DNA of 64,000 nt from Shigella phage CT01, in the sequence record OK018184. The stretch is one strand, 5' to 3'. The translations under genes were made by a program, and so were the position numbers. Positions 17,657-62,197 of the stretch are shown here, piece after piece. Positions within the stretch are counted from its first letter, which is position 1. Every line of letters starts with the position of its first letter. Below the pieces are notes generated by a model. It saw only the letters and a program-made list of their open reading frames with translations, did not search any database and was not told where the DNA came from.

Positions 17657-18831
17657 TGAGTATGTTGCAACGCCCTGGATATCCAAATCTCAGCGTTAAA
17701 TTATTTGATAGCTACGACGCTTGGAGTAATAATAGATTTGTTGAATTAGCTGCTACTATTACCACATTAACTATGCGGGATTCTCTTTATGGCCGAAATG
17801 AAGGAATGCTGCAGTTTTATGATTCTAAAAACATCCATACAAAAATGGATGGAAATGAAATAATTCAGATTTCTGTAGCTAATGCAAACGATATTAATAA
17901 TGTTAAAACAAGAATTTATGGATGTAAGCATTTTTCTGTGTCAGTAGATTCAAAGGGTGATAACATCATTGCTATTGAATTGGGAACTATTCATTCTATA
18001 GAAAATCTTAAATTTGGCAGACCGTTTTTCCCTGATGCAGGTGAATCTATAAAGGAAATGCTTGGCGTCATTTATCAAGACCGCACATTATTAACTCCAG
18101 CAATAAATGCTATAAATGCTTATGTTCCTGATATTCCGTGGACTAGTACATTTGAAAACTATTTGTCATATGTCAGAGAAGTTGCTCTAGCTGTAGGAAG
18201 TGACAAATTTGTATTTGTATGGCAAGACATCATGGGAGTTAACATGATGGACTATGATATGATGATAAATCAAGAACCGTATCCAATGATTGTCGGTGAG
18301 CCATCTTTAATAGGTCAATTCATCCAAGAATTAAAATATCCATTGGCATATGATTTCGTTTGGTTGACTAAATCGAATCCTCACAAACGTGACCCAATGA
18401 AAAACGCTACTATCTATGCTCATTCATTTTTAGATTCTTCATTGCCAATGATTACTACAGGAAAGGGCGAAAACTCTATTGTAGTGTCAAGGTCAGGTGC
18501 TTATTCTGAAATGACTTATAGGAATGGATATGAAGAAGCTATTCGTCTTCAAACTATGGCGCAATACGATGGCTATGCTAAATGTTCTACTGTCGGTAAT
18601 TTTAACTTGACACCTGGCGTTAAAATTATTTTTAATGATAGTAAAAACCAATTTAAAACAGAATTTTACGTTGATGAAGTCATCCATGAATTATCCAATA
18701 ATAATTCAGTAACTCATCTATATATGTTCACTAATGCAACGAAACTGGAAACAATAGACCCAGTTAAGGTTAAAAATGAATTTAAATCTGATACTACCAC
18801 TGAAGAAAGTAGTTCTTCCAATAAGCAATAA
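17656..18831 (+). CDS. 27: Baseplate hub protein gp27
   Basis: 391 aa, T4 gp27 length. Confidence 0.9.
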
Positions 18832-29644: not shown

Positions 29645-30576
29645 TAGAATGCTCCTTGAAAAATATTATCACCACTAGTAGGTCTATTATACAAATACTC
29701 TATGCCACCAGGTTTAATATAGTTCCATGTCTGAAACGGATGTGTCTGATATGGATGATATAGATGATTATTAGGTCTATTATACAAATACTCTATGCCA
29801 CCAGGTTTAATATAGTTCCATGTCTGAAACGGATGTGTCTGATATGGATGATATAGATGATTATAAGGATTTAATCCAGGCGTTCTCCAGGTAGTGTTCC
29901 AAGGAAAAGAATCGTTTTTAACCATCTTCTCAATTAAATCTTTTATAGCTTTTTCACTATCAAAACTTTCTTTATTTTCCTTCGGCGAAAAAAGCTTATT
30001 TTCTACATCATTCCATGTATAAACTCGCTGCGCAGTTTTTGGAATATTGTCACGCTCTCCTCGAGCCATCCAATAAACAGGAACATTTAATATTTCACTC
30101 GCATGATCGCAGTGATGAGCGAGATCGTCAATATAACAAATTACGTTATATTTCTCTTTTGCCTTTTTGAACAGCTCTTCTTTTGAAGAATCATGACCAC
30201 ACATCATTACTTCCGAGAAAGCACCAGGAAAAAGAGCATTCAAATTAAATTGACGATTCAACAGAGCGTCAATAGAATCACCCAATGCTGTAACAGCTAC
30301 AAAATTATAATCTTCTTTTAATTTGTTAATTACACACAGGGCATCTTTATACGGAGACAAGTAACGAATAAAATCTGAACGATTGTATTTTTCAATTAAC
30401 TTGACGCCAAGTTCTTCGTCACAATTAAAGAGTTTACCCGGAGAAATAAATTTCTCATCTTGGATCATTTTTAAAATATGTTCTAATGGAAGATTATATT
30501 TCTGAGCAAAATAAGGAAGGCCTGATTGCCAGCTTAAACATACTCCATCAATATCAGTTAAAATAGTTGGCTTCAT
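29644..30576 (-). CDS. HAD-superfamily hydrolase-like protein (T4 30.2 position) with internal 31-aa tandem duplication
   Basis: 310 aa; N-terminal ILTDIDGV resembles HAD motif I; 93-bp perfect tandem repeat near C-terminus. Confidence 0.65.
   Translation of the reverse strand: MKPTILTDIDGVCLSWQSGLPYFAQKYNLPLEHILKMIQDEKFISPGKLFNCDEELGVKLIEKYNRSDFIRYLSPYKDALCVINKLKEDYNFVAVTALGDSIDALLNRQFNLNALFPGAFSEVMMCGHDSSKEELFKKAKEKYNVICYIDDLAHHCDHASEILNVPVYWMARGERDNIPKTAQRVYTWNDVENKLFSPKENKESFDSEKAIKDLIEKMVKNDSFPWNTTWRTPGLNPYNHLYHPYQTHPFQTWNYIKPGGIEYLYNRPNNHLYHPYQTHPFQTWNYIKPGGIEYLYNRPTSGDNIFQGAF
29679..29864. repeat. 93-bp perfect tandem duplication (2 copies) inside 30.2 ORF
   Basis: 29679-29771 is identical to 29772-29864; in frame, duplicates 31 codons. 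Confidence 0.9.
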
Positions 30577-32805: not shown

Positions 32806-33022
32806 TATAAATTCTCTTTTAAATGAAAATGCAGGACTTATTGGCATTGCCTGCGCAAGCCCTCAAGGGGAACATAGGTTTTTGAATATTTAACGACCAG
32901 GATAACCATAAACCCGTCATCATACCTTATAGCTCTTATCTGTTGTACACCGTTAGCTTAAAGGTTCCGGGTTCGATTTCTCGAGGATAAGATATATACT
33001 AAGGCAGTGAATCTCCAATAAA

Positions 33023-41027: not shown

Positions 41028-42179
41028 TTAAAAGTATTTTTTAAAACTCATCATAACTTTATCATCAACATCATTATCAATCTGTGCAACAAGGTAAGAT
41101 GACAGTTCTACTTCTTGTGGCGCGGATTGAACATTATCAGAATTAAGGTATTCACGAATCCAAGGATATGGATGTTTAACCGGAGCATCGGTAATTGGGC
41201 ATGGAAGACCGCACTGTTTCATACGAGATACAGTTAAGTAATCAATAAAGCTCCACATGCTATTTGTATTTAATCCAGGAACATCGCCATCTTTAAATAA
41301 ATGAACTGCCCAATCTTTTTCTTGGCGGTTAACTTCCATGAAAATATTAACTGCTTCTTGTTCACACTCTTGAGCAATTTTAACCCATTCGCCGCCATCA
41401 GTACCGGATTGAAGTTGACGAATAATATATTGGGTGCCTTTAAGGTGAAGCTGCTCATCACGTGCAATGAACTTCATAATCTTGGCATTACCTTCCATGA
41501 TTTCCATGTTCTTATGGAAGTTAAAGGTACATGCAAAAGATACATAAAAACGAATAGCTTCTAAGGCATTAATAACGTGCAAACAGAGGTAAAGAGATTT
41601 CATTAGTGCTCGTTTAGCTTCGGCTTCTTGTTTAATAGCTCGATTTAAACGAAAAACAGCATCAGGAGATTCTTTAGCTAGTTCTGTAAATTCTTTAGCA
41701 TTTTCCCATTCACGGGTTTTAGTCAGAACATCATCATAATAGCGACCGATAGATTCAGCACGTTTCATGATAGCTTCATCTAGTACAATCTCATCAAATA
41801 CCTTCGATGGATCAGTATAAAGATTTCGCATGATATGGGTATATGAACGGCTATGAATAGTTTCACTAAAAGTCCATGTAGCAACCCATGTATCAAGACT
41901 TGGGTCTGAAATTAATGACATAAGTACTGCAGACGGTGCACGACCCTGAATGCTATCTAGAAGTGATTGATACTTCAGGTTGTTAGTAAAAATATCTTGC
42001 TGATACTGAGGAAGCTTGTTAAATTGTGCAGCATCCATCATTAAGTTTACTTCTTCAGGACGCCAGAAAAATGACAACTGCTTTTCGGTTAAATCTTCAA
42101 AAACTTTATGACGTTGAATATCATAACGCGCAATACCAAGACCTGAACCGAAGAACATAGGTTCTTTTAAAACATTCAA
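41028..42179 (-). CDS. nrdB: Ribonucleotide reductase small subunit NrdB (no intron; start codon uncertain)
   Basis: 383 aa ORF continuous with class Ia R2 sequence; track start is a TTG preceded by an in-frame stop; first ATG is at MFFGSG. Confidence 0.85.
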   Translation of the reverse strand: MNVLKEPMFFGSGLGIARYDIQRHKVFEDLTEKQLSFFWRPEEVNLMMDAAQFNKLPQYQQDIFTNNLKYQSLLDSIQGRAPSAVLMSLISDPSLDTWVATWTFSETIHSRSYTHIMRNLYTDPSKVFDEIVLDEAIMKRAESIGRYYDDVLTKTREWENAKEFTELAKESPDAVFRLNRAIKQEAEAKRALMKSLYLCLHVINALEAIRFYVSFACTFNFHKNMEIMEGNAKIMKFIARDEQLHLKGTQYIIRQLQSGTDGGEWVKIAQECEQEAVNIFMEVNRQEKDWAVHLFKDGDVPGLNTNSMWSFIDYLTVSRMKQCGLPCPITDAPVKHPYPWIREYLNSDNVQSAPQEVELSSYLVAQIDNDVDDKVMMSFKKYF

Positions 42180-42309
42180 CTAAATTTTCCTTATCATCAG
42201 AACCTCCCATACATCTAGGGATTATATGATGTGTCTCTTTATATTCTGATAAAGATTCCCGAGCCTGAGCTCGGGAAATTAGGTCATTATAGATTTTTTG
42301 ATAATTCAT
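42121..42309 (-). pseudogene. Truncated HNH homing-endonuclease remnant (mobE-like position between nrdA and nrdB)
   Basis: 62 aa ORF starting 7 nt after nrdA stop; contains HNH-like HHIIPRCMGGSDDKENLV, then runs out of frame into nrdB. Confidence 0.55.
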
Positions 42310-43091: not shown

Positions 43092-43239
43092 ATCTTGATA
43101 GTCTAACAGGTTATCAAGTGCACGTACTTGAACTTCTGCTAATTCATTAATTTTATCTTGGTCTTGCCAATCGAAGTTATCCAACACAAATGCAGATAAC
43201 GTGCACAATCCAATTTCAGCATCAGGACTATTCACATCA
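43092..43239. repeat. 148-bp direct repeat, left copy (nrdA codons for DVNSPDAEIG...LLDYQD)
   Basis: Identical to 44099-44246. Confidence 0.9.
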
Positions 43240-44098
43240 GTTCGACGCGTTGTTCTTGAAGACGGATCACATACTTGGACTGCTAAACAAGATTTTAATG
43301 GCGCAGTTAACTTTAACTCTACTGTTAACCTTAATAACACTACCACATTTAAAACAGAAGTTAAATTCCGCTCGTTGAATGCATTCCGTATGTATGGCGG
43401 AAAATTTGGTACATTTTTACGTAATGATGGAGAGAGTCTTTATATTCTTTCCACCGACGAAGATGATCAAGATGGAAACTTTAATACAAATAGACCTTTC
43501 CGTTATGAATTAAGAACTGGTGATGTTACTTTGGGTGGTGTTAGTGGTGCTAACGTTTTAAAATTAAAACGTGATTCTCTCACCGCATTTTTTGGCGGTG
43601 ATATTAACATGAAAGGCACGATGACTTTTGACGCCGGACGTTTAGGGTCACGAGATTATTTTAAATTTAACCATTGGGGTGATAGCAATAACGCTCGTGA
43701 TAACATCATCCAGTTAGAAGATAGTCAAGGCGCTCATTTTTCCACTGAACGTACTTTAGCGACTGGTGCAATTAAAACTCGTTTCTTTGGCGAAACATTC
43801 ACTGATGGTACATTATACCTAAATCAGATGAATAATAGCTCTGAACGATTCCATATCAATAATTGGGGAAATTCAGAAGTTGGTCGCGCGGCAGTGATGG
43901 AAGTCGGTGATTCCAAAGGTTATCACTTCTATACGGAACGCAGGACAGATAACAGTTTGACATTTGATGTTGCTGGCACTTTTACCGTGCATGGACCTAC
44001 CGGGATCACTATCAAAAACTCTGTTGGTGCTCGCCACATCTGGTTTAAAGATGATAGCGATGCAGAAAAGGCTGACAGTTTAATTACCTTCCGCAGTG
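43240..44098 (+). other. Insertion within nrdA: 835-bp fragment of tail fibre gene 37 (sense on + strand) plus 24-bp filler of unknown origin
   Basis: 43240-44074 matches gene 37 at 60946-61436 except that it also contains the 344 bp absent there; 44075-44098 matches neither locus. Confidence 0.85.
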
Positions 44099-44246
44099 AT
44101 CTTGATAGTCTAACAGGTTATCAAGTGCACGTACTTGAACTTCTGCTAATTCATTAATTTTATCTTGGTCTTGCCAATCGAAGTTATCCAACACAAATGC
44201 AGATAACGTGCACAATCCAATTTCAGCATCAGGACTATTCACATCA
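44099..44246. repeat. 148-bp direct repeat, right copy
   Basis: Identical to 43092-43239. Confidence 0.9.
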
Positions 44247-45570
44247 TTTGTTGGAATAGCAATTTCACAACACAAGTTACTCTGGCGAATAGGCGCCTTT
44301 TCACGAATAAACGGAGTATAGTTATTCGTATTATCAATGAACTGCACATAAATCCTTGCTGTTCCTGATCGTTCAGTCATGAGTAATTCAAATAGTTCAC
44401 GGGCTTTAATACGCTTTTTGCGAATATTAGGGTCTTTTTCTGCTGCTTCGTATAATTCGCAGAAACGGTCTTGGTCTTTAAAATAAGAATAATAAAGCTC
44501 ACCACCCATTTCATGCGGACTGAACAAAGTAATGTAATCGTTCTTTCCAAAACGTTCCATCATCAAATCATTCAACTGGACGCCATAATCCATATGACGG
44601 ATACGGTTTTCTTCTACACCTTTGTTATTTTTCAAAACGAGAAGATTTTCAACTTCCAAATGCCAAATAGGATAATAAGCAGTAGCAGCGCCGCCACGAA
44701 TTCCGCCCTGTGAACATGATTTAACAGCAGTCTGAAAATGTTTCCAAAAAGGAATAACACCAGTATGGCGTACTTCACCTGTGCCAATCTTAGAACCTTC
44801 GGCACGAATCATACCAACGTTAATACCGATTCCAGCTCGTTTTGAAATATACTCAACAATTGAAGCAGAAGCCTTATTGATAGACTTCAGCGAATCGCCT
44901 GCCTCAATAACAACGCATGAACTAAATTGCCGAGTCGGAGTACGACATCCAGCCATAATAGGAGTAGGCAGTGAAATCTGTCGAGTAGATACTGCTTCAT
45001 AAAAACGAATAACATGTTTTAATCTATCAACAGGTTCATCTTGATGTAATGCCATTCCAATAGTCATAAATGCAAACTGAGGAGTTTCATAAATTTGACC
45101 AGTGGTTTTATCTTTAACGAGATATTTTTCTTTTAATTGCATCGCCCCGGAATAAGTAAATTCCATATCCCGCTCATGCTTAATTTTTGATTCTAAAAAT
45201 GTAATTTCTTCTGCTGAATATTTTGACAACAATTCAGGGTCGTATTTACCTTCATTTACACAGTAAGAAATATGGTCAATAAATGAACGTGGTTCATATT
45301 GCCCGTAAACATGCTTACGAAGAGCAAACATTAAACACCGTGCAGCTACGTATTGATAATCAGGCTCTTCAACTGAAATAGAATTCGCAGCAGCCTTAAT
45401 TACAATGGTTTGAATGTCATCAGTGGTCATTCCATCACGGAGATATGATTTAATATTTTCATATAATTCATAAGGATCTACAGATGTTCCTTCAGCTGCC
45501 CAAGATAAAACTTTAATAATTTTTTGCGGGTCAAAGCTTTGAGAAACACCACTACTTTTGATAACATTAA

Positions 45571-45897
45571 TTAATTGCATAAGTCCTCAACTTGAAAATC
45601 GTCTTTAAACAATCGGTTAACTATATGAGCTATTATATCACCATGACACGGCTTTGGTTTACATGTGCATCCTAGCCTCATTCCACGTAAAGGCTCTAAA
45701 TGTGCTTTAGTTATTTCTCCGGATTTAATTCGACGTATAAAATCTTTTTTGAATAATTCAATGGCAGCCTCCCGGCTGCCAGCATCTTTACCGACGTAAT
45801 TTCCCCAAAATGTACCACGGTGAATATTAACATCAAAGTCGGATTTATATTTATTCACTACTTGGCATAGACGGCCCGCGCGGTGATAATTTGTCAT
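45571..45897 (-). CDS. Hypothetical protein upstream of nrdA
   Basis: 108 aa ORF; [11 protein letters not shown] cysteine motif. Confidence 0.55.
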
Positions 45898-46114
45898 ATT
45901 GTTTTTCCGTTAAAACAGTAATATCATAATAACAATCTGAAGAAGTTTTAACCGTAGAAATTTTATTATCAAAATACTCACGAGTCATTTTATGAGTATA
46001 ATATTTTTTGCCATAAATTATAATAGGCTGATTTGGTCCTGGAACTTCTAACTCGCTTGGGTTAGGAAGTGTAAAAAGAACTACACCAGAAGTATCTTTA
46101 AATCGTAAAATCAT
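45851..46114 (-). CDS. Hypothetical protein upstream of nrdA
   Basis: 87 aa ORF. Confidence 0.5.
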
Positions 46115-46137
46115 ATATCCTCACAATTAATAATTAA

Positions 46138-46998
46138 TTACACCGCCATTTTTCCTTTAATAGGAGGGTGAGATACATAGTTGTTAAGAACAAAATTATG
46201 CGGCTTTGCGAATTGACTCAACCAAAATACCTGTGATTCTGTGTCCCATTCATCAAATTCATCTGGAAATTTTAATTGTAATTCGCATAAATCCATAGGT
46301 TCACGACGCAAAATTTCTTTACATTGTTCTACGTGATTCATATAGATATGAGTATTACCACCAGAAAATATCAAATCTCCTGGAATAAGATTACACATCT
46401 TAGCTACAATATGAACTAATGCAGCATATGATGCAATGTTGAATGGCAAGCCCAAGAACACGTCAACACTTCTTTGATACCACTGCAAATCCAAATAGCC
46501 ATTACGCACATTAAACTGATAGAACATATGACAAGGCGGTAATGCCATTTGCTTGAGTTCAGCTGGATTCCATGCTGAAACAATTTGACGTCTATCATTT
46601 GGCAGTTTTTTAATACGATCAACAACTTCTATAATTTGGTCTACACCGCCAAAATCACGCCATTGTTTTCCATAAATTGGACCAAGTTCACCGCTATGAT
46701 ATCCTAAATCTTTTGCTTGATTTTCGTAATTTTCATCCCAGACTGTTTTGCCTTGAATTAATGAATCATGCTGAATTAATCGTAAATCATTTACGTTAGT
46801 ACTTCCTGATAAAAACCATATTAGCTCAGCAATGCAAGCTTTCCAGGCGAGCTTCTTAGTTGTTACTGCAGGAAAACCTTTACTTAAATCCCAGCGTAAT
46901 TTAGTACCGAACAGAGCAATTGTTCCTGTGCCTGTTCGGTCATCAGTTTCATAGCCATTTTCAAAAATGTCTTTAATTAAATCTTGGTATTGTTTCAT
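46138..46998 (-). CDS. td: Thymidylate synthase (uninterrupted, no group I intron)
   Basis: 286 aa continuous ORF with ThyA motifs (LPPCH, active-site Cys); T4 Td is 286 aa but is intron-split in T4. Confidence 0.93.
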   Translation of the reverse strand: MKQYQDLIKDIFENGYETDDRTGTGTIALFGTKLRWDLSKGFPAVTTKKLAWKACIAELIWFLSGSTNVNDLRLIQHDSLIQGKTVWDENYENQAKDLGYHSGELGPIYGKQWRDFGGVDQIIEVVDRIKKLPNDRRQIVSAWNPAELKQMALPPCHMFYQFNVRNGYLDLQWYQRSVDVFLGLPFNIASYAALVHIVAKMCNLIPGDLIFSGGNTHIYMNHVEQCKEILRREPMDLCELQLKFPDEFDEWDTESQVFWLSQFAKPHNFVLNNYVSHPPIKGKMAV

Positions 46999-47043
46999 TT
47001 AGTACCTTATATAAATTATAATACATTTTATGAAGCTAAATAA

Positions 47044-47403
47044 TCAATACGGTTTAGCGTCAAATTTTCTTTCAATTTCAGGCGTAAAATATAATTCTTT
47101 ACCACGCTTGGAAAAGCGACCAATAATATGATAATTATTCTCATCAAACGTGATATTGCCAATATCCATAGCTTTCAACCAAATATCGATATTTCTGTCA
47201 AGCTTTATATCAAAATTCCAATACGGAGAACTATTACCGAAAATACTGCAAGCGGATTCAGTGAAACAACTACTATAAATCTTGTCTTTAGGAACTACTA
47301 ATTGATAGACGCCTTTAATAAACTGAGGACCCTGCCATTTTGGCTGTTTCGCGTCTTTTTCTAATAGAATAGGGTAATAATTAAAGCTCATATTTTCCGC
47401 CAC
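47044..47403 (-). CDS. Hypothetical protein inserted between frd and td
   Basis: 119 aa ORF; no counterpart recalled at this position in T4, where frd and td overlap. Confidence 0.5.
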   Translation of the reverse strand: MAENMSFNYYPILLEKDAKQPKWQGPQFIKGVYQLVVPKDKIYSSCFTESACSIFGNSSPYWNFDIKLDRNIDIWLKAMDIGNITFDENNYHIIGRFSKRGKELYFTPEIERKFDAKPY

Positions 47404-47411
47404 GTGTTATT

Positions 47412-48238
<827 letters not shown>

Positions 48239-48246
48239 ATTATCTC

Positions 48247-48582
48247 CTAATATAAAGGATCGGGAACATATCCACTAGCTTTAATCATTTTGATTAATGT
48301 TAACATTCCTTTATTAACTGCTCGTGAGATTTCATCAAAAACTTCATCACTAAAAAGTTCTAACACGCCCTTCTGAACTTTTAATTTACACCCAATAATT
48401 TCGTCATCGCCTATAGTAAATTCGTTTCCGCCAATTCCACCGAAAAACTTAATTGCACCAGTCAACTGTCTTCCACGAGAATATGGGTCGTGTGATAAAG
48501 TAATATGAGTCACCCCAGGTACAGTTTTAAATTGACAGCGGATGTTTACTTGGGCAATTCCAGTTACGTGAATGTCAGACAT
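48247..48582 (-). CDS. Hypothetical protein (frd.x region)
   Basis: 111 aa ORF. Confidence 0.55.
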   Translation of the reverse strand: MSDIHVTGIAQVNIRCQFKTVPGVTHITLSHDPYSRGRQLTGAIKFFGGIGGNEFTIGDDEIIGCKLKVQKGVLELFSDEVFDEISRAVNKGMLTLIKMIKASGYVPDPLY

Positions 48583-48606
48583 AATATTTTCCTCAAACAG
48601 ACTTTT

Positions 48607-49029
48607 TCACAATTTTCCAATCAGCTTTAAACTGTTCAACGTCAGAATGATAAATCCAGAATCCTGCGCTTTCTCCATCCTCATAAAGAGGGCATCCATC
48701 GCATTCATCTTCCCATCCCATATCACGTAAAAGATGTTCGGCTTTTTCAACGAGATCAGAATCTTTACCGATGATATTAAAATACCATTTACCTCTAACT
48801 TCTGAATCTTTTCTTTAGTAGCCTTTTCCATACTTCTGAACTTAACCAATAGAGGATAGGTATCGACACCCATAACTAAACTGGTTACAAGACTGTGTTC
48901 ACCCACAAGCCATAACGAATACGTTTGAATATCGAGTCCGTAATTTCTGTCTTTATGGACCCGTACACCCATCACTTCAAATTTCTCACTAGCTTTTTCT
49001 ACCGCATCCAGGAAATCATCTTTAGTCAT
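48607..49029 (-). CDS. Hypothetical protein (frd.x region); may be two shorter ORFs
   Basis: ORF track 154 aa; likelier start at internal ATG (MTKDDF...); C-terminal half has odd composition. Confidence 0.4.
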   Translation of the reverse strand: MTKDDFLDAVEKASEKFEVMGVRVHKDRNYGLDIQTYSLWLVGEHSLVTSLVMGVDTYPLLVKFRSMEKATKEKIQKLEVNGILISSVKILISLKKPNIFYVIWDGKMNAMDALFMRMEKAQDSGFIILTLNSLKLIGKL

Positions 49030-49030
49030 A

Positions 49031-49432
49031 TTAGGCCTTAAAAGTTTTTCGCAAAAGTTCAATGATTTCATCTACATTGTTTTCGTCTACAATGCAGTGA
49101 ATTTTTGTTACGCCAGAAATCTTGTCTTCGACTTCATCTTCTTCAGAAGTCGGTTCTTTATACTCGCGGAAACAATAAAACTCTTCTTCACTAAGTTCAA
49201 AATAATCATCACCTATGCCATCATTATAATAGATTTCGCCATTAGCACAAATGATTTCGGTTACATAATCAAAGCCATCTAAACTTGATATTGATTTAAC
49301 TTCAAACCAACCGCCATTTTCTTGAATGATGCTGACCATATTAGCATTTGATGAACTAATATCAATGAAAGATTTAATACGGTGTGGATTTAACTCATAT
49401 TTTTTGCCGATTTCCATTTTGATTTTCCTCAT
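49031..49432 (-). CDS. Hypothetical protein
   Basis: 133 aa ORF. Confidence 0.55.
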   Translation of the reverse strand: MRKIKMEIGKKYELNPHRIKSFIDISSSNANMVSIIQENGGWFEVKSISSLDGFDYVTEIICANGEIYYNDGIGDDYFELSEEEFYCFREYKEPTSEEDEVEDKISGVTKIHCIVDENNVDEIIELLRKTFKA

Positions 49433-49462
49433 TTTAACGGGACTGTAATAGCCCCTTGATAA

Positions 49463-49711
49463 TTATTGTTCAATCAGTCCCATATAAAATTCTGCGTCTT
49501 CAGCATCCATGCCATCGCAATATTCATTAGCCATAAAGCGGGTGAGGTCTTCAAGAGGACCTTCAATAACGATTTGAATACTCCAAAACTTAGAATCTTG
49601 TACTCTTGTGATACTAAGTTCAGGATAACGATTACGAATAATTTCTTCAATATATTCAAAATCAACGATGTCAATATCAACTTTAGCCATATTATTTTCC
49701 TCTTTAATCAT
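49463..49711 (-). CDS. Hypothetical protein downstream of gene 32
   Basis: 82 aa ORF. Confidence 0.55.
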
Positions 49712-49793
49712 CAGCAGTATTGCCGATAGTTGTATAGTACCATAGAAGAACAGAGATGTAAACAGTTTTGTGAAAAATTTTTGAAATAAAAAA

Positions 49794-49812
49794 GGGGACC
49801 TCTAGGGTCCCC
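49794..49812 (-). terminator. Rho-independent terminator downstream of gene 32
   Basis: GGGGACC-TCTA-GGGTCCCC hairpin followed by T-run on minus strand. Confidence 0.65.
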
Positions 49813-49834
49813 AATTAATTAGTAATATAATCTA

Positions 49835-50743
49835 TTAAAGGTCATTCAAAAGGTCATCCAGATCCGTGTCATCAGCACTAGATGAACTGCCAGAGCTTGA
49901 GCTCATAAAATCATCTTCAGTTTTTGTTTTGAAGTCATCAACATTGAATGCATCCAAATCATCAGCAACTTTATCAGCTTTCTTAGCGGCAGTTGCTGCG
50001 GCACCGCCCATAGCAGCAGTTCCCATAACTTGACTGAACTTAGTGCTCAGTTCTTCAAACGATTTGAATTTATCTTTAGAAGTCATTTCAGAAAGGTCAA
50101 CCATTTGTTCGAACAGTTCTTTCTGGAAAGATTCATCATCAATGTTTGGAATCGCAGATTGATTCAGGAATTTAGATTCATCGTAGTTACTAAAACCAGA
50201 AACTTGTTTAACTTTCAGTACAAAGTTAGCACCTTCCCACGGACAAGTTACATCAACCGGAGTTTCACCCATTTCAACATCAACTGCAATCATTGCATTG
50301 ATTTTATCCCAGATTTTCTTACCAAAACGGTATTTAAATACTTTACCTTCATTTTCTGGAGCAGCTGGGTCTTTTACTACAAGAATGTTAGCCCAGTAAG
50401 AAGTTTTACGTTTAACAAGACCGTACTCTTTATTGTCAGTGTTATACAAATCATTTTTACTGATGTACTGACATACTGGACAAGAATCGTAATCACCGTG
50501 GGTAGATGAACAGTTTTCAATATACCATTTACCATTTTTCTTGAAACCGTGATTTACAAGAATTGCGAATGGTGCTTGTTCATCATTTTTAGACGGAAGA
50601 AAACGAATTACTGCTTGACCGTTACCCGCATTATCGAGTTTCAGTTTCCACTCGCCTTTATCTTCAGAAGAAAAACTACCTTTATTTCCAGCCAGTTTAG
50701 CCATTTGTGCAGCGAGTTCAGCAGTAGATTTACGTTTAAACAT
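49835..50743 (-). CDS. 32: Single-stranded DNA-binding protein gp32
   Basis: 302 aa; matches recalled T4 gp32 ([17 protein letters not shown]..., C-terminal acidic serine-rich tail). Confidence 0.95.
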
Positions 50744-50990
50744 TTTTATTTCCTTTTTAATTTAATTAACAGTTGGTGCTATGACGATGTATGACCTCAT
50801 AGCTGGTCAGTGAGATAATTATAATCTATTTATAATAAGCAATTAATACTTACAAGATTTCACAGTTTCAATGAAAACACTTTTGGCTTTCTGTGAATCA
50901 ATATTTAAAATTTTTCTATAAGCCTTTAACTTTATAGAATAATTATTCCAGACTAAATTATCAGTCTGTTCATCATGTTTATCAATTATA
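50453..50990. repeat. 538-bp direct repeat, copy 1 (gene 32 first 97 codons + gene 32 leader + last 49 codons of gene 59)
   Basis: Identical to 51054-51591. Confidence 0.9.
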
Positions 50991-51344
50991 ATTCGAACTG
51001 ATCTGTGTTTGTGCATTTGGGCATATGTTTGCGCGCGTAAAGCAGGCTGGTCGATTTTTACTGATGTACTGACATACTGGACAAGAATCGTAATCACCGT
51101 GGGTAGATGAACAGTTTTCAATATACCATTTACCATTTTTCTTGAAACCGTGATTTACAAGAATTGCGAATGGTGCTTGTTCATCATTTTTAGACGGAAG
51201 AAAACGAATTACTGCTTGACCGTTACCCGCATTATCGAGTTTCAGTTTCCACTCGCCTTTATCTTCAGAAGAAAAACTACCTTTATTTCCAGCCAGTTTA
51301 GCCATTTGTGCAGCGAGTTCAGCAGTAGATTTACGTTTAAACAT
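50982..51344 (-). pseudogene. Truncated duplicate of gene 32 5' end (97 gp32 codons fused to 23 junction codons)
   Basis: 120 aa ORF identical to gp32 through ...VCQYISKN, then diverges in the 63-bp filler; carries a second copy of the gene 32 leader. Confidence 0.75.
50991..51053. other. 63-bp junction filler of unknown origin between the two repeat copies
   Basis: Does not match flanking phage sequence; higher GC than its surroundings. Confidence 0.7.
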
Positions 51345-51591
51345 TTTTATTTCCTTTTTAATTTAATTAACAGTTGGTGCTATGACGATGTATGACCTCA
51401 TAGCTGGTCAGTGAGATAATTATAATCTATTTATAATAAGCAATTAATACTTACAAGATTTCACAGTTTCAATGAAAACACTTTTGGCTTTCTGTGAATC
51501 AATATTTAAAATTTTTCTATAAGCCTTTAACTTTATAGAATAATTATTCCAGACTAAATTATCAGTCTGTTCATCATGTTTATCAATTATA
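51054..51591. repeat. 538-bp direct repeat, copy 2
   Basis: Identical to 50453-50990. Confidence 0.9.
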
Positions 51592-52097
51592 TTTAAAAAC
51601 GAATCAAGCAAGATAAACGTCTCAAACGAAATTATATTCGATTGAAGTAGTTTAAAAATATAACTTGATTGAACTTTTGGATTATACTCAAAGATTTCTT
51701 TAAAAGCAGAAACTTCAACTTTTTTACTAAAATAGTAAATATTGCGAATATCTTCTTCAAACTTAAATTTAATTTGCTTTAAGCGTCCGATATATTCACG
51801 ATAAAACACAAGTGCATCAGCGTCAGAGATGTCACCAATCCAAGCATCTTGGTTAGCAACAAGATTGCTTATAAAGATTAAAGCAAGTTCCTTTAATTTA
51901 TATTTTTCTGATAACTTCTGGAAAAAATACTTATCCCTTCGCTTTTGATAAGCGGCATCAGACACCCGCATGCACCAATTATACTTAATTACATCATACT
52001 TTCCATTCATATGTTGTTTTATCATTAAGTATAATTTATAAACTGATTTACCATCAATATATCTTTCACCACCAGCAGGCATGCGGAGTTTAATCAT
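51444..52097 (-). CDS. 59: Helicase loader gp59
   Basis: 217 aa, T4 gp59 length and sequence. Confidence 0.92.
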   Translation of the reverse strand: MIKLRMPAGGERYIDGKSVYKLYLMIKQHMNGKYDVIKYNWCMRVSDAAYQKRRDKYFFQKLSEKYKLKELALIFISNLVANQDAWIGDISDADALVFYREYIGRLKQIKFKFEEDIRNIYYFSKKVEVSAFKEIFEYNPKVQSSYIFKLLQSNIISFETFILLDSFLNIIDKHDEQTDNLVWNNYSIKLKAYRKILNIDSQKAKSVFIETVKSCKY

Positions 52098-58765: not shown

Positions 58766-59458
58766 ATGGCTGATTTAAAAGTAGGTTCAACTGTGGGTGG
58801 ATCTGTCATTTGGCATCAAGGAAATTTTCCATTGAATTCAGCCGGTGACGATGTACTCTACAAATCATTTAAAATATATTCAGAATATAATAAACCGCAG
58901 GCAGCTGATAACGATTTCGTTTCTAAAGCTAATGGTGGTACTTACACCGGTCCAATTACTATTAATTACGGGGTAAATAGTTATCTTCAATTAAGTAATA
59001 ATGAAACCCCTATCCGAATTCGTTCTGGTGGCGGCACCGGTAATACTCTTGTAATTGGTGGATCTTCTGGTGGTATTAGTTTTAGACCTGCAGGTAGTGA
59101 AATCACTACTGGACAAATTAGTTTTAGACCTGCAGGTAGTGAAATCACTACTGGACAAATTACTATTACGCCAGAAGGTTTGACAACATTCACCAAAGCT
59201 GTAAAGGCTCCATCTGTAACTGTTACATCTACTCCTTCCGCAGCATCAGATGCTACTCGTAAAGATTATGTTGATGGAGCAATAAATACTGTTACAGCAA
59301 ATGCAAACTCTAGAGTGTTACGATCTGGTGACACCATGACAGGAAATTTAACTGCGCCAAACCTTTTTTCACAGAATCCTGCATCTCAACCTTCACACGT
59401 TCCACGATTTGACCAAATCGTAATTAAGGATTCTGTTCAAGATTTCGGCTATTATTAA
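58766..59458 (+). CDS. 36: Long tail fibre proximal-distal connector gp36 (with 14-aa tandem duplication)
   Basis: 230 aa; T4 gp36 is 221 aa; contains a perfect 42-bp tandem repeat. Confidence 0.88.
59076..59159. repeat. 42-bp perfect tandem duplication (2 copies) inside gene 36
   Basis: 59076-59117 is identical to 59118-59159; in frame ([14 protein letters not shown] x2). Confidence 0.9.
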
Positions 59459-59466
59459 GAGGACTT

Positions 59467-62197
59467 ATGGCTACTTTAAAACAAATACAATTTAAAAGAA
59501 GCAAAACCGCAGGTCAACTTCCTGCTGCTTCAGTATTAGCCGAAGGTGAATTGGCTATTAATTTAAAAGATAAAACAATTTTCACAAAAGATGACTCAGG
59601 CAATGTTATAGAATTAGGTTTAAAATATGGAGGAACAATTGATGGTTCTTTAACTGTTAATGGAAATATAATTGGAAATTTAACAGGTAACGCTGCAACT
59701 GCAACGAAATTAAAAACAGCACGAAAAATTAATGGTATATCCTTTGATGGGTCAAAAGATATCACGCTAACTCCATCCGACATAAATGTCAATAGCACAA
59801 CGTTTATAAAAAATAACGGCGAATTACCTGTTGATGCTAATTTAGATACGTATGGGCCTGTTGAAGAATATCTTGGAGTTTGGTCGAAAGCAACTTCAAC
59901 CAACGCTCAACCAGCAAATAAATTTCCAGAAAACAATGCTGTAGGTGTGCTAGAAGTATTTGTGGCCGGTCAATTTGCTGGTACTCAGAGATATACAACT
60001 AGATACGGAAATGTTTATATTCGTTCCTTGACTGCTACATGGAACGGAGTAAATGGTCCGTGGAGTGTGTGGCGAAATATTCAATCCGGTACTCGTTCAC
60101 TGTCAACAACAATTGATCTTAATGATCTAGGAGGTGCTGAACATCTTGGTTTGTGGCGAAATAGTTCAAATTCCATTGCTACCTTTGACAGAAATTTCCC
60201 AGAAGAGGGGTCGTCAGCTCAAGGTCTTTTGGAAGTATATGAAGGTGGAAACTATTCTCGTACACAAAGATATACAACCAGATTTGGTGTTGTTTATACT
60301 CGCTGTCTTACTGCTGCGTGGGATGCTTCTGCGCCTAAATGGGGACCGTGGCAACAAGTCGGTAATGTCACACCGGCGACTTTCTATGACGGAAACCTGA
60401 ATGATTTTAAAACTCCTGGGTTATATAATATTTTAGGCACTGATGCCGTTATTAATTGTCCTACAGGCGAAGGTTTACCAGCCGTTATTGTTGGTTTGCT
60501 GGAAGTTAAACAGCGTGCTTCTGGCGGTGCTATTTTCCAAAAATTTACTACTGCCGGAACAGGTGCAACTACCCGCGATCGTATTTTTGAGCGCGCATAT
60601 ACCGGCGGTGTGTGGGGTGAATGGAACGAAGTATACACATCTTATTCTCTACCAATTACTTTGGGTATGGGCGGTATTAAATCTAACTTAGCAGAGTTAG
60701 ACTGGCAAGCATTTGATTTTGTTCCTGGTAGTATGTTTAGCGTTCCTTTGAACAAAATAAAGAACATGCCAGCTAATATGGATTGGGGTACGATTGACGG
60801 AAACTTAATTATGTTTTCTGTTGGTCCTAGCGAGCACACCAGCACAGGACGTACTGTTCAGGTTTGGCGTGGAACTGTATCCCAGACAAACTATCGTTAT
60901 TTTGTCGTTCGTGTATTCGGTAATCCAGGGAGTAGAACATGTACAGTTCGACGCGTTGTTCTTGAAGACGGATCACATACTTGGACTGCTAAACAAGATT
61001 TTAATGGCGCAGTTAACTTTAACTCTACTGTTAACCTTAATAACACTACCACATTTAAAACAGAAGTTAAATTCCGCTCGTTGAATGCAAGGCGCTCATT
61101 TTTCCACTGAACGTACTTTAGCGACTGGTGCAATTAAAACTCGTTTCTTTGGCGAAACATTCACTGATGGTACATTATACCTAAATCAGATGAATAATAG
61201 CTCTGAACGATTCCATATCAATAATTGGGGAAATTCAGAAGTTGGTCGCGCGGCAGTGATGGAAGTCGGTGATTCCAAAGGTTATCACTTCTATACGGAA
61301 CGCAGGACAGATAACAGTTTGACATTTGATGTTGCTGGCACTTTTACCGTGCATGGACCTACCGGGATCACTATCAAAAACTCTGTTGGTGCTCGCCACA
61401 TCTGGTTTAAAGATGATAGCGATGCAGAAAAGGCTGTTATCTGGGCTACAGATGAGGGTATTTTACATATTCGCAATAATCATGAGGGTTCATTTAGTCA
61501 TCACTTCCAGGGTGCAATGATTAAACTGGAAGGGCGTGTTCCTTATGGTGCAGCAAAAGGGCTTATTCGAGGCGAGATAGACGGTGGTGCATATGTTGCA
61601 TGGAGAGACCGCCCTGCTGGTTTGTTGGTTGACTGCCAGAAAAGTATTGACAGTGCTCATGCTGTTTGGAAAGCGGTTGATTGGGGGCGTCAATATATCG
61701 CTGCTATGGACGTTCATTGTCCGGGTGATGGTAATAATACTGCGGCAGCGGTTCTTCATGTTCAGGCTGCTGATTATCAATTCCATGCAAGCGGAGAATT
61801 TCATGCCACTGGTAACGGGAACTTTAACGATGTGTATATTCGTTCCGATGGTCGTCTGAAAATTAATGTTGAAGATTATACAGGAAATGCGTTAAGTTTG
61901 ATCGGCAAACTGAAAGTGAAAACTTACGATAAAGTTAAATCTCTTAAAGACCGTGAAATTATCGGTCACGAGATCGGCATTATCGCACAGGATTTACAAG
62001 AAATATTACCGGAAGCTGTAAAATCTTCAAAGGTTGGCAATCTTGATAATCCAGACGATGTTCTGACAATTTCTAACTCTGCTGTGAATGCTCTTTTAAT
62101 TAAGGCTATTCAGGAAATGAGTAAAGAAATTAAAGAATTGAAAACTCCTTTCTTTACTAAAATTGCTCGCAAAATTAGTAAATATTTTAAATTCTAA
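59467..62197 (+). pseudogene. 37: Long tail fibre distal subunit gp37, frameshifted by a 344-bp internal deletion
   Basis: Split into ORFs 59467-61110 and 61085-62197; the missing 344 bp (junction at 61089/61090) is present in the copy inside nrdA; C-terminus has a chaperone-like domain. Confidence 0.85.

Follow-up and report, generated by a model that had tools for sequence, protein, structure and literature searches.

Tandem duplications and break repair in T4-like phages

Among the structures closest to the one described here are the tandem duplications of phage T4 and the scars left by illegitimate repair of broken T4 DNA. The subject is a direct duplication at the junction of gene 59, which encodes the helicase loader, and gene 32, which encodes the single-stranded DNA-binding protein gp32, in Shigella phage CT01 (sequence record OK018184). 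A stretch of 64,000 nt of this record, hereafter the window, was analysed, and all coordinates are window positions. T4 rII partial diploids are said to have been described by Weil, Terzaghi and Crasemann in 1965 and by Parma, Ingraham and Snyder in 1972. In eukaryotes and bacteria, duplications with templated insertions are known from microhomology-mediated break-induced replication and fork stalling and template switching (MMBIR/FoSTeS). T4 replication is itself largely recombination-dependent and resembles break-induced replication, and we know of no demonstration of MMBIR/FoSTeS in T4-like phages. T4 duplications are also known from the work of Homyk and Weil, to the extent that it is summarised in PMC8262927. 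In the same phage, double-strand breaks lead to deletions at "minihomologies" of 3–13 nt, and breaks made by CRISPR are likewise repaired illegitimately at microhomologies (Wu et al. 2021, PMC8262927). Illegitimate, microhomology-based repair of breaks made by endonucleases is documented in T4 (PMC2988022), and the illegitimate repair of double-strand breaks during T4 homing is attributed to Parker, Belisle and Belfort (1999) in the summary given by that source.

The 59/32 junction is a site of homing in T4, which carries the homing endonuclease gene segG between the two genes (PMC535899, PMC2988022); the target of SegG is gene 32 (PMC2988022, Table 1 therein). An earlier note on the window had credited T4 with only a short intergenic region at this position, a statement overturned by the presence of segG. 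On its sequence, the duplication found in the window is read here, tentatively and with a confidence just short of even, as a real, recent and unstable product of illegitimate DNA-break repair.

Structure of the duplication at the 59/32 junction

Two copies of a 538-nt unit lie on the same strand in direct orientation, identical at 538/538 positions with 0 mismatches, and are separated by a filler of 63 nt (Table 1). Their starts are 601 nt apart, and the repeat cannot be extended by even one base on either side. An exact repeat of this length cannot have arisen by chance. The unit comprises gene 32 nt 1–291 (97 codons), the 99-nt gene 32 leader and 148 nt of gene 59, namely the stop codon, 48 codons and 1 nt. 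All genes of the region lie on the minus strand, and in the order of transcription it reads complete gene 59, leader, a truncated gene 32 (gene 32') running into the filler, a 3' piece of gene 59, leader, and complete gene 32. Complete gene 32 draws on copy 1 and complete gene 59 on copy 2, and both essential genes are thus intact. The earlier note had recognised this anatomy correctly: the coordinates and orientation of the two copies, the composition of the unit, and the assignment of each complete gene to its copy all agree with the identity count, the open reading frames (ORFs) and the Pfam matches.

The duplication leaves two by-products within the region. The product of gene 32' joins gp32 residues 1–97 to 23 residues encoded by the filler and by out-of-frame gene 59 sequence, and the exact 120-aa product has no record among 153 billion called genes. 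The gene 59 fragment lacks a start codon, and its frame is shared by a 97-aa ORF (50843–51136) that begins out of frame in gene 32' and reads through the filler. The leader contains a hairpin, GCUAUGA...UCAUAGC, that corresponds to the stem of the T4-type gene 32 pseudoknot, together with AU-rich UUAAA/UAAA elements and an AAGGA ribosome-binding site, and these elements match the architecture of the gene 32 operator (PMC535899). Since both leaders carry them, the operator is present twice. Rfam did not match the gene 32 operator, and its search of 50300–51800 gave nothing beyond one chance hit. Putative promoter motifs, TATAAATA and a MotA-box-like element, were read by eye in the leader.

The window belongs to a Tequatrovirus that is not T4 itself, and its nearest relative is Shigella phage SF2-1 (PQ571308), with 98.4% identity over 22 kb. 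In the relatives listed the junction is single. Among the best 30 of 815 T4-like phage matches, alignments spanned 1,100–1,101 nt of a 1,701-nt query, and none of these 30 covered the filler. Likewise, all 10 of the 10 public loci with an identical gp59 have one 59/32 junction. The copies are adjacent and in the same orientation, and the relatives in the records listed are single-copy, as in a tandem direct duplication. No mosaic boundary was seen at the ends of the duplication. Public assemblies hold the exact gp59 protein in 1,180 blocks, and of the products looked up it alone is on record: the exact gp32, gp34 and chimeric-ORF products are not. Two of the public contigs with T4-like genes, ERZ724095 NODE_1 (353 kb) and JAODFN010000001.1 of GCA_025336695.1 (489 kb), exceed a T4-type genome in length by a factor of two to three and are likely to be concatemeric or chimeric assemblies.

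The base sequence of the window is, as far as its substitutions and reading frames tell, natural and well polished, because 67 of the 84 SF2-1 ORFs are kept intact at equal length and because window-unique substitutions are mostly synonymous (33 synonymous against 9 non-synonymous; 34/44 at third codon positions); doubt is limited to the structural joints. A generated or noisy sequence is ruled out by the same ratio of substitutions. Three stretches only are covered by none of 11 relatives: the 63-nt filler, a second filler in nrdA, and a variable 93-nt tandem repeat. This last is in frame (29676–29861), with two copies and 1 mismatch; it doubles a stretch of 31 residues (NHLYHPYQTHPFQTWNYIKPGGIEYLYNRP...) at the C-terminal end of a protein of 310 aa, of which the SF2-1 version is shorter and degenerate. 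Gene 36 also holds a 42-nt in-frame tandem duplication (59075–59162), which brings its product to 230 aa, against 216 aa in SF2-1. The window contains no long inverted repeats.

The 63-nt filler

The filler is richer in GC (49.2%) than the repeat (31.8%) and the window as a whole (36.3%). In BLAST searches it matched mdtD in 5,417 of 5,426 Escherichia coli genomes (36/40, E = 2e-5). Aligned in register, filler nt 20–60 agree with E. coli mdtD at 37/41 positions, including an exact run of 26 nt (TTGGGCATATGTTTGCGCGCGTAAAG, 51017–51042), and the peptide LLYARKHMP is conserved. As the 26-nt match lies, by our own estimate, far beyond chance, this part of the filler is, judged by its letters, chromosomal DNA of the E. 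coli/Shigella type, and hosts of this type are also those of the closest relatives. The differences from mdtD include 4 that change an amino acid and 1 that is silent, and the conserved motif keeps 8 of its 9 wobble positions; such a pattern would be odd for the orthologue of another species and looks more like a noisy or patchwork copy. The earlier note had described a foreign filler that is GC-richer than its flanks and unlike them. The comparison with the flanks stands, with similarity no better than in shuffled controls. The foreign origin is supported in part: the core is mdtD-like and no phage record contains the filler, while the first ~19 nt match nothing; some 22 nt in all lie outside the mdtD match.

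Other sources of the filler were sought without success. The whole filler is absent from 50,697 phage records and from the 5,426 E. coli genomes; the full 63-mer was not found in the representative genomes of GTDB, nor was a 40-mer in IMG/VR or the JGI metagenomes. A 28-mer was likewise absent from GTDB, and as it began ATTTGGG where E. coli has AATTGGG, it could not have matched E. coli. A degenerate 12-residue peptide pattern derived from the filler had no match in metagenomes, and in PLSDB plasmids the filler matched only E. coli mdtD in mislabelled chromosomes. None of its 11-mers recurs elsewhere in the window. Templating from the flanks or from the rest of the window was rejected, both for the filler and for a 24-nt piece in nrdA (see below), matches being no better than in shuffled controls. 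A mobile element or homing endonuclease gene as the inserted DNA was also rejected, since the filler is 63 nt long and has no ORF of its own, no repeat and no phage match.

Three side observations concern this sequence. Its end, 51039–51053 (GCTGGTCG), contains a near match, with one mismatch, to the E. coli Chi octamer GCTGGTGG, which is probably a coincidence. Two "Campylobacter phage" hits of the filler are to E. coli-type mdtD inside records marked UNVERIFIED. In one of them, MG065686.1 ("Campylobacter phage A18a"), mdtD lies at 1400–1640, near the record end, and has probably entered the assembly from the host or a contaminant.

An untrimmed overlap left by assembly or finishing is the main rival to break repair, and we take it to be only somewhat less probable. 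Two contig or read ends overlapping by 538 nt would have been joined head to tail, the true genome would have a single junction, and one of the ends would have borne 63 nt of unsupported junk, either the tail of a chimeric, host-derived read or that of an unpolished one. The 100% identity of the copies fits this account. So does a filler that is only ~90% mdtD-like and matchless over its first ~19 nt, as in an unpolished single-read tail, and noise of ~10% is typical of raw long reads rather than of synthesis in vivo. Public assemblies of T4-like phages do hold gross errors, such as contigs of 353 kb and 489 kb for genomes of ~169 kb, and "Campylobacter phage" records with mdtD. On the other side, the window has no N gaps and no similarity to sequencing adapters or linkers, and the sequence elsewhere is of high quality.

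Sister rearrangements in the window

Comparison of the window with itself and with SF2-1 showed that the 59/32 event is one of several rearrangements. The earlier note, sound on the anatomy of this duplication, had overlooked the others: a duplication in nrdA, four deletions and an apparently broken gene 37. The nrdA event has the same architecture as the 59/32 event, a direct duplication with a filler, and splits nrdA. Its insert consists of 837 nt from gene 37 (43238–44074, plus strand, antisense to nrdA), 100% identical to gene 37 of SF2-1 and overlapping nrdA by 2 nt at the joint, followed by 24 nt (44075–44098; ACAGTTTAATTACCTTCCGCAGTG) that have no match, including no meaningful match in E. 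coli.

The four deletions, of 181, 629, 124 and 344 nt, have microhomologies of 3, 6, 2 and 2 nt, respectively. The 629-nt deletion affects an HNH homing endonuclease gene, of which only the first ~42 codons remain (42121–42309), and it also takes away the beginning of nrdB (41028–42179), 26 nt that include its start codon. Since nrdA is split and nrdB has lost its start, both genes for the subunits of the aerobic ribonucleotide reductase look inactive. The 124-nt deletion fuses a DUF5417-type small ORF and its neighbour into an ORF of 154 aa (48607–49071). The 344-nt deletion shifts the frame of gene 37 (distal tail fibre, 59467–62197) and divides it into an ORF of 547 aa and one of 370 aa, the downstream frame being opened by an ATG that sits exactly at the junction. 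No relative compared spans the junctions in gene 37, in nrdB and between the small ORFs, and the last of these is absent from all 11. In the phage collection, none of the records listed has these three junctions: the best-ranked ones give two separate alignments there or only a partial one. Microhomology was scored at the joint between nrdA and gene 37 (2 nt) and at the four deletions. At the deletions it appears to exceed chance, the probability of 2 nt or more being ~0.19 per joint by our own estimate.

As written, the broken gene 37 would be lethal. The 344 nt missing from it fall inside the 837-nt piece in nrdA, and the break may reflect mis-phasing between the native gene and the nrdA copy. 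The deletion would then have been wrongly assigned between the two 837-nt copies; if it belonged to the nrdA copy, the genome would be viable, and the nrdA filler would be a chain made up of the 24 nt and two patches from gene 37, with a 2-nt joint at each patch. Such a chain, if the copies are re-phased in this way, would be a signature of serial template switching.

Table 1. Positions of the duplicated segments, genes and rearrangement joints in the window
Feature	Position	Strand	Description
Copy 1 of the 538-nt unit	50453–50990		Gives the 5' end, leader and promoter region to complete gene 32
Filler at the novel joint	50991–51053		63 nt, 49% GC
mdtD-like core of the filler	51010–51050	- (coding sense)	Filler nt 20–60
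Copy 2 of the 538-nt unit	51054–51591		3' end of complete gene 59, then second leader and truncated gene 32
Complete gene 32 (single-stranded DNA-binding protein, 302 aa)	49835–50743	-	Pfam PF08804 gp32, E = 1.7e-66; ATG at 50743
Complete gene 59 (helicase loader, 217 aa)	51444–52097	-	Pfam PF08993 T4_Gp59_N and PF08994 T4_Gp59_C
Truncated gene 32' ORF, 120 aa	50982–51344	-	From ORF list; Pfam gp32 profile positions 1–59 only
Orphan gene 59 3' fragment (48 codons and stop)	50843–50990	-	PF08994 profile positions 50–109
Gene 32 leader, copy 1	50744–50842	-	From sequence, fold and alignment to relatives
Gene 32 leader, copy 2	51345–51443	-	Identical to copy 1; upstream of truncated gene 32'
nrdA sister event	43092–44246		148-nt exact duplication (43092–43239 and 44099–44246) of nrdA nt 1335–1482
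629-nt deletion junction	42174–42181		6-nt microhomology; HNH homing endonuclease gene and nrdB
124-nt deletion junction	48802–48811		2-nt microhomology; two small ORFs fused next to frd
181-nt deletion	32998–33000		3-nt microhomology; intergenic; compared with SF2-1 only
Gene 37 deletion junction	61088–61089	+	344 nt, 2-nt microhomology, frameshifting

These events bear on the overlap artefact in both directions. In that account the nrdA structure would be a second join of the same type, and the 6.9 kb between the two (44099–50990) would be one contig; the window holds exactly two such combinations of overlap and junk, and a broken gene 37 means that the record is not a faithful clonal genome everywhere. 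The "junk" in nrdA, on the other hand, would be 837 nt of polished gene 37, a 2-nt joint and 24 nt, for which two consecutive chimeric joints are needed. Nor do assemblers arrange four deletions that carry microhomologies and mostly spare essential genes.

The window is virtually identical to SF2-1 at 17.5–45 kb and at 61–63 kb, and several rearrangements within DNA otherwise identical to that phage speak for an artefact and also for an engineered phage or an in silico construct with introduced structural variants. The latter we regard as highly improbable: the microhomologies at the deletion joints and an exact host match of 26 nt within an otherwise non-matching filler are unlike the output of a simulator or designer, and no restriction-site, scar or barcode logic is evident.

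Homing endonuclease sites at both duplications

The 99-nt spacer between genes 59 and 32 is typical of relatives lacking segG, and the window is of this segG-less type. In three of the loci compared (L007, L008 and L015), a 210-aa homing endonuclease (phrog_7504, E = 8.5e-134) replaces 36 nt of the spacer, at the place that segG occupies in T4. In another, L014, an I-HmuI-like HNH homing endonuclease gene (17986–18696 of that locus) is inserted in nrdA at nt 1346–1378, within the segment duplicated in the window, so that nrdA is divided between a 477-aa and a 329-aa ORF. No group I intron was detected by Rfam at this endonuclease. Both duplications thus cover sites at which relatives bear homing endonucleases, and the 629-nt deletion removes a further HNH endonuclease gene, beside nrdB. 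Among 11 sequences, no columns of gene 32 separate segG-plus from segG-minus alleles.

This co-location is suggestive of a link with break repair. A second explanation would be that sites variable in the presence of an endonuclease form branch points in the assembly graph of a mixed phage sample, in which case the co-location would be accounted for by an overlap artefact.

A proposed mechanism of illegitimate break repair

The break, its cause and the route of its repair may be reconstructed as follows. The event would have begun with a break within the 5' third of gene 32 or close to it, giving a 3' end that stopped at, or was extended to, nt 291. As the phage lacks segG, its gene 32 should be cleavable in a mixed infection, and the break could have been made by a homing endonuclease of the SegG type that a co-infecting relative supplied. 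Instead of re-entering a sister copy in register, the 3' end would have gained ~63 nt of non-phage DNA, at least 26–41 nt of it from a host-type mdtD, and would then have resumed on phage DNA 538 nt upstream, within gene 59. Two routes could lead there: templates may have been switched serially in the course of recombination-dependent replication, or two genome copies broken at different places may have been joined at their ends, with a stray fragment caught between them. Recombination-dependent replication or ligation would have completed the chromosome. Because a tandem duplication leaves one intact copy of the genes that cross its ends, genes 59 and 32 would survive with their normal upstream signals. 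One by-product would be a second gene 32 leader and operator, from which the 120-aa gp32 stump would be expressed; the other would be a 3' piece of gene 59 that stays silent. The two 538-nt copies should recombine with each other and so remove the extra copy and the filler precisely, and the structure should therefore decay on passage.

Several features of the record argue for repair of a real break. An assembly based on overlaps or k-mers could not invent the joints unless molecules carried them: no shared sequence is apparent at either 59/32 joint, and nrdA and gene 37 share 2 nt only. A family of like events, the nrdA duplication and the four microhomology deletions, is found in the same window. 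The damage looks as though it had been filtered by selection: the genes hit are nrdA, nrdB, the HNH endonuclease gene and two small ORFs, together with an intergenic stretch, and the essential genes 59 and 32 are spared. In T4, nrdA and nrdB are non-essential. Finally, both duplications span homing endonuclease sites, and breaks at such sites are repaired illegitimately in T4.

A circular intermediate would offer another route to a real duplication. A circle of 601 nt (538 phage and 63 foreign) would have integrated by one homologous crossover, much as T4 insertion/substitution plasmids do; in nrdA, the circle would have measured 1,007 nt. T4 recombination is very active on short homologies. 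A single crossover gives exactly the order target, insert, target and dispenses with microhomology at the joints, and T4 ligase is able to join ends in vivo on its own (PMC6525309). Yet 148 nt is short for an efficient crossover, and the microhomology deletions are left unaccounted for; we consider this route very unlikely.

The case for illegitimate break repair has its own weaknesses. Some 27 kb (17.5–45 kb) are nearly free of substitutions relative to SF2-1 yet hold three rearrangements, with a fourth in 61–63 kb, and a burst of rearrangements without point mutations is unusual for natural descent. As known from the T4 rII duplications, direct repeats do not last in a highly recombinogenic phage; those found here, of 538 nt and 148 nt, should vanish quickly, a point in favour of an artefact, and should form a majority only just after their origin or under selection, and no benefit of the duplication is evident. 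Gene 37 is broken as written. The filler looks like a noisy copy, and an error of ~10% would be far above the rate of any polymerase in vivo. SegG reportedly cleaves gene 32 at 332 bp from its insertion site, a distance credited to Liu et al. in 2003; the cleavage site, which on this basis we take to be at about gene 32 nt 233–269, would lie inside the unit, 22–58 nt from its gene 32 end, and hence near, not at, the boundary at nt 291.

Implications

Were the duplication real, the window would hold a natural tandem duplication with captured filler in a T4-like phage, at a homing endonuclease target and near similar scars. It would bear on how these phages rearrange, on how they tolerate attacks on essential genes, and on how small fragments of host DNA, which is normally destroyed, gain entry to the phage genome. 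Genes 59 and 32 would be expressed normally, and the extra operator would be expected to titrate gp32. The 120-aa stump would have the N-terminal cooperativity segment and the zinc ligands (His64, Cys77, Cys87 and Cys90 in T4 gp32), while most of the fold that binds DNA would be missing. Autoregulation of gp32 could also be tested directly in such a phage, which would have a gp32 stump and two operators for gene 32. If instead the structure is an artefact, the record needs correction at 50991–51591, in nrdA and in gene 37.

A broader claim, which we judge unlikely, would be that a natural T4-like lineage suffered a burst of breaks at homing endonuclease targets (gene 32, nrdA/nrdB), of which the window shows the scars. 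Repair by template switching or end joining would have duplicated the broken region and captured stray DNA, a piece of host chromosome included. If it were true, failed homing would be a route by which phages with hydroxymethylcytosine DNA gain host or ectopic sequences and partial gene duplicates. One such duplicate would be the N-terminal gp32 stump, expressed separately from an autoregulatory operator of its own; it might, furthermore, disturb gp32 cooperativity and promote further rearrangement.

Comparison with known systems

The untrimmed end overlaps of circularly permuted phage assemblies resemble the structure in their perfect direct repeat at the join and the possible presence of junk at a contig end. 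They are usually found where a record begins or ends, or at the point chosen as its start, and have the length of a k-mer or read overlap, whereas the repeats of the window are internal, occur in two cases, and in one of them enclose a filler of 861 nt.

With MMBIR/FoSTeS, the window shares a duplication with short pieces copied from elsewhere at the joint and a clustering of complex events, and differs from it in that one of the inserted pieces is host-like and imperfect. The four deletions fit those triggered by breaks in T4, with homologies of 2–13 nt and lengths from tens of base pairs to kilobases (Wu et al. 2021, PMC8262927); that study concerns deletions, whereas the 59/32 event is a duplication with a captured filler. 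As in the cases of SegG homing, the locus is the insertion site of segG and gene 32 is the target; unlike in those cases, no segG was acquired.

The structure also resembles the tandem duplications of T4, which are likewise head-to-tail direct repeats in a T-even genome, whose outer copies keep the flanking genes intact, and which share the expected loss by recombination between the copies and the constraint of headful packaging. The classical T4 duplications span kilobases, were selected by complementation and, as far as is known, have simple novel joints, in contrast to the 538 nt, the absence of apparent selection and the 63-nt non-phage joint seen here. The kind of event is already known, as T-even tandem duplications and microhomology rearrangements, and it brings no new function. 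The 59/32 duplication would be an unusual member of this kind, with host-like DNA in its novel joint, a position at a homing endonuclease target and, beside it, a second event with a long templated insertion.

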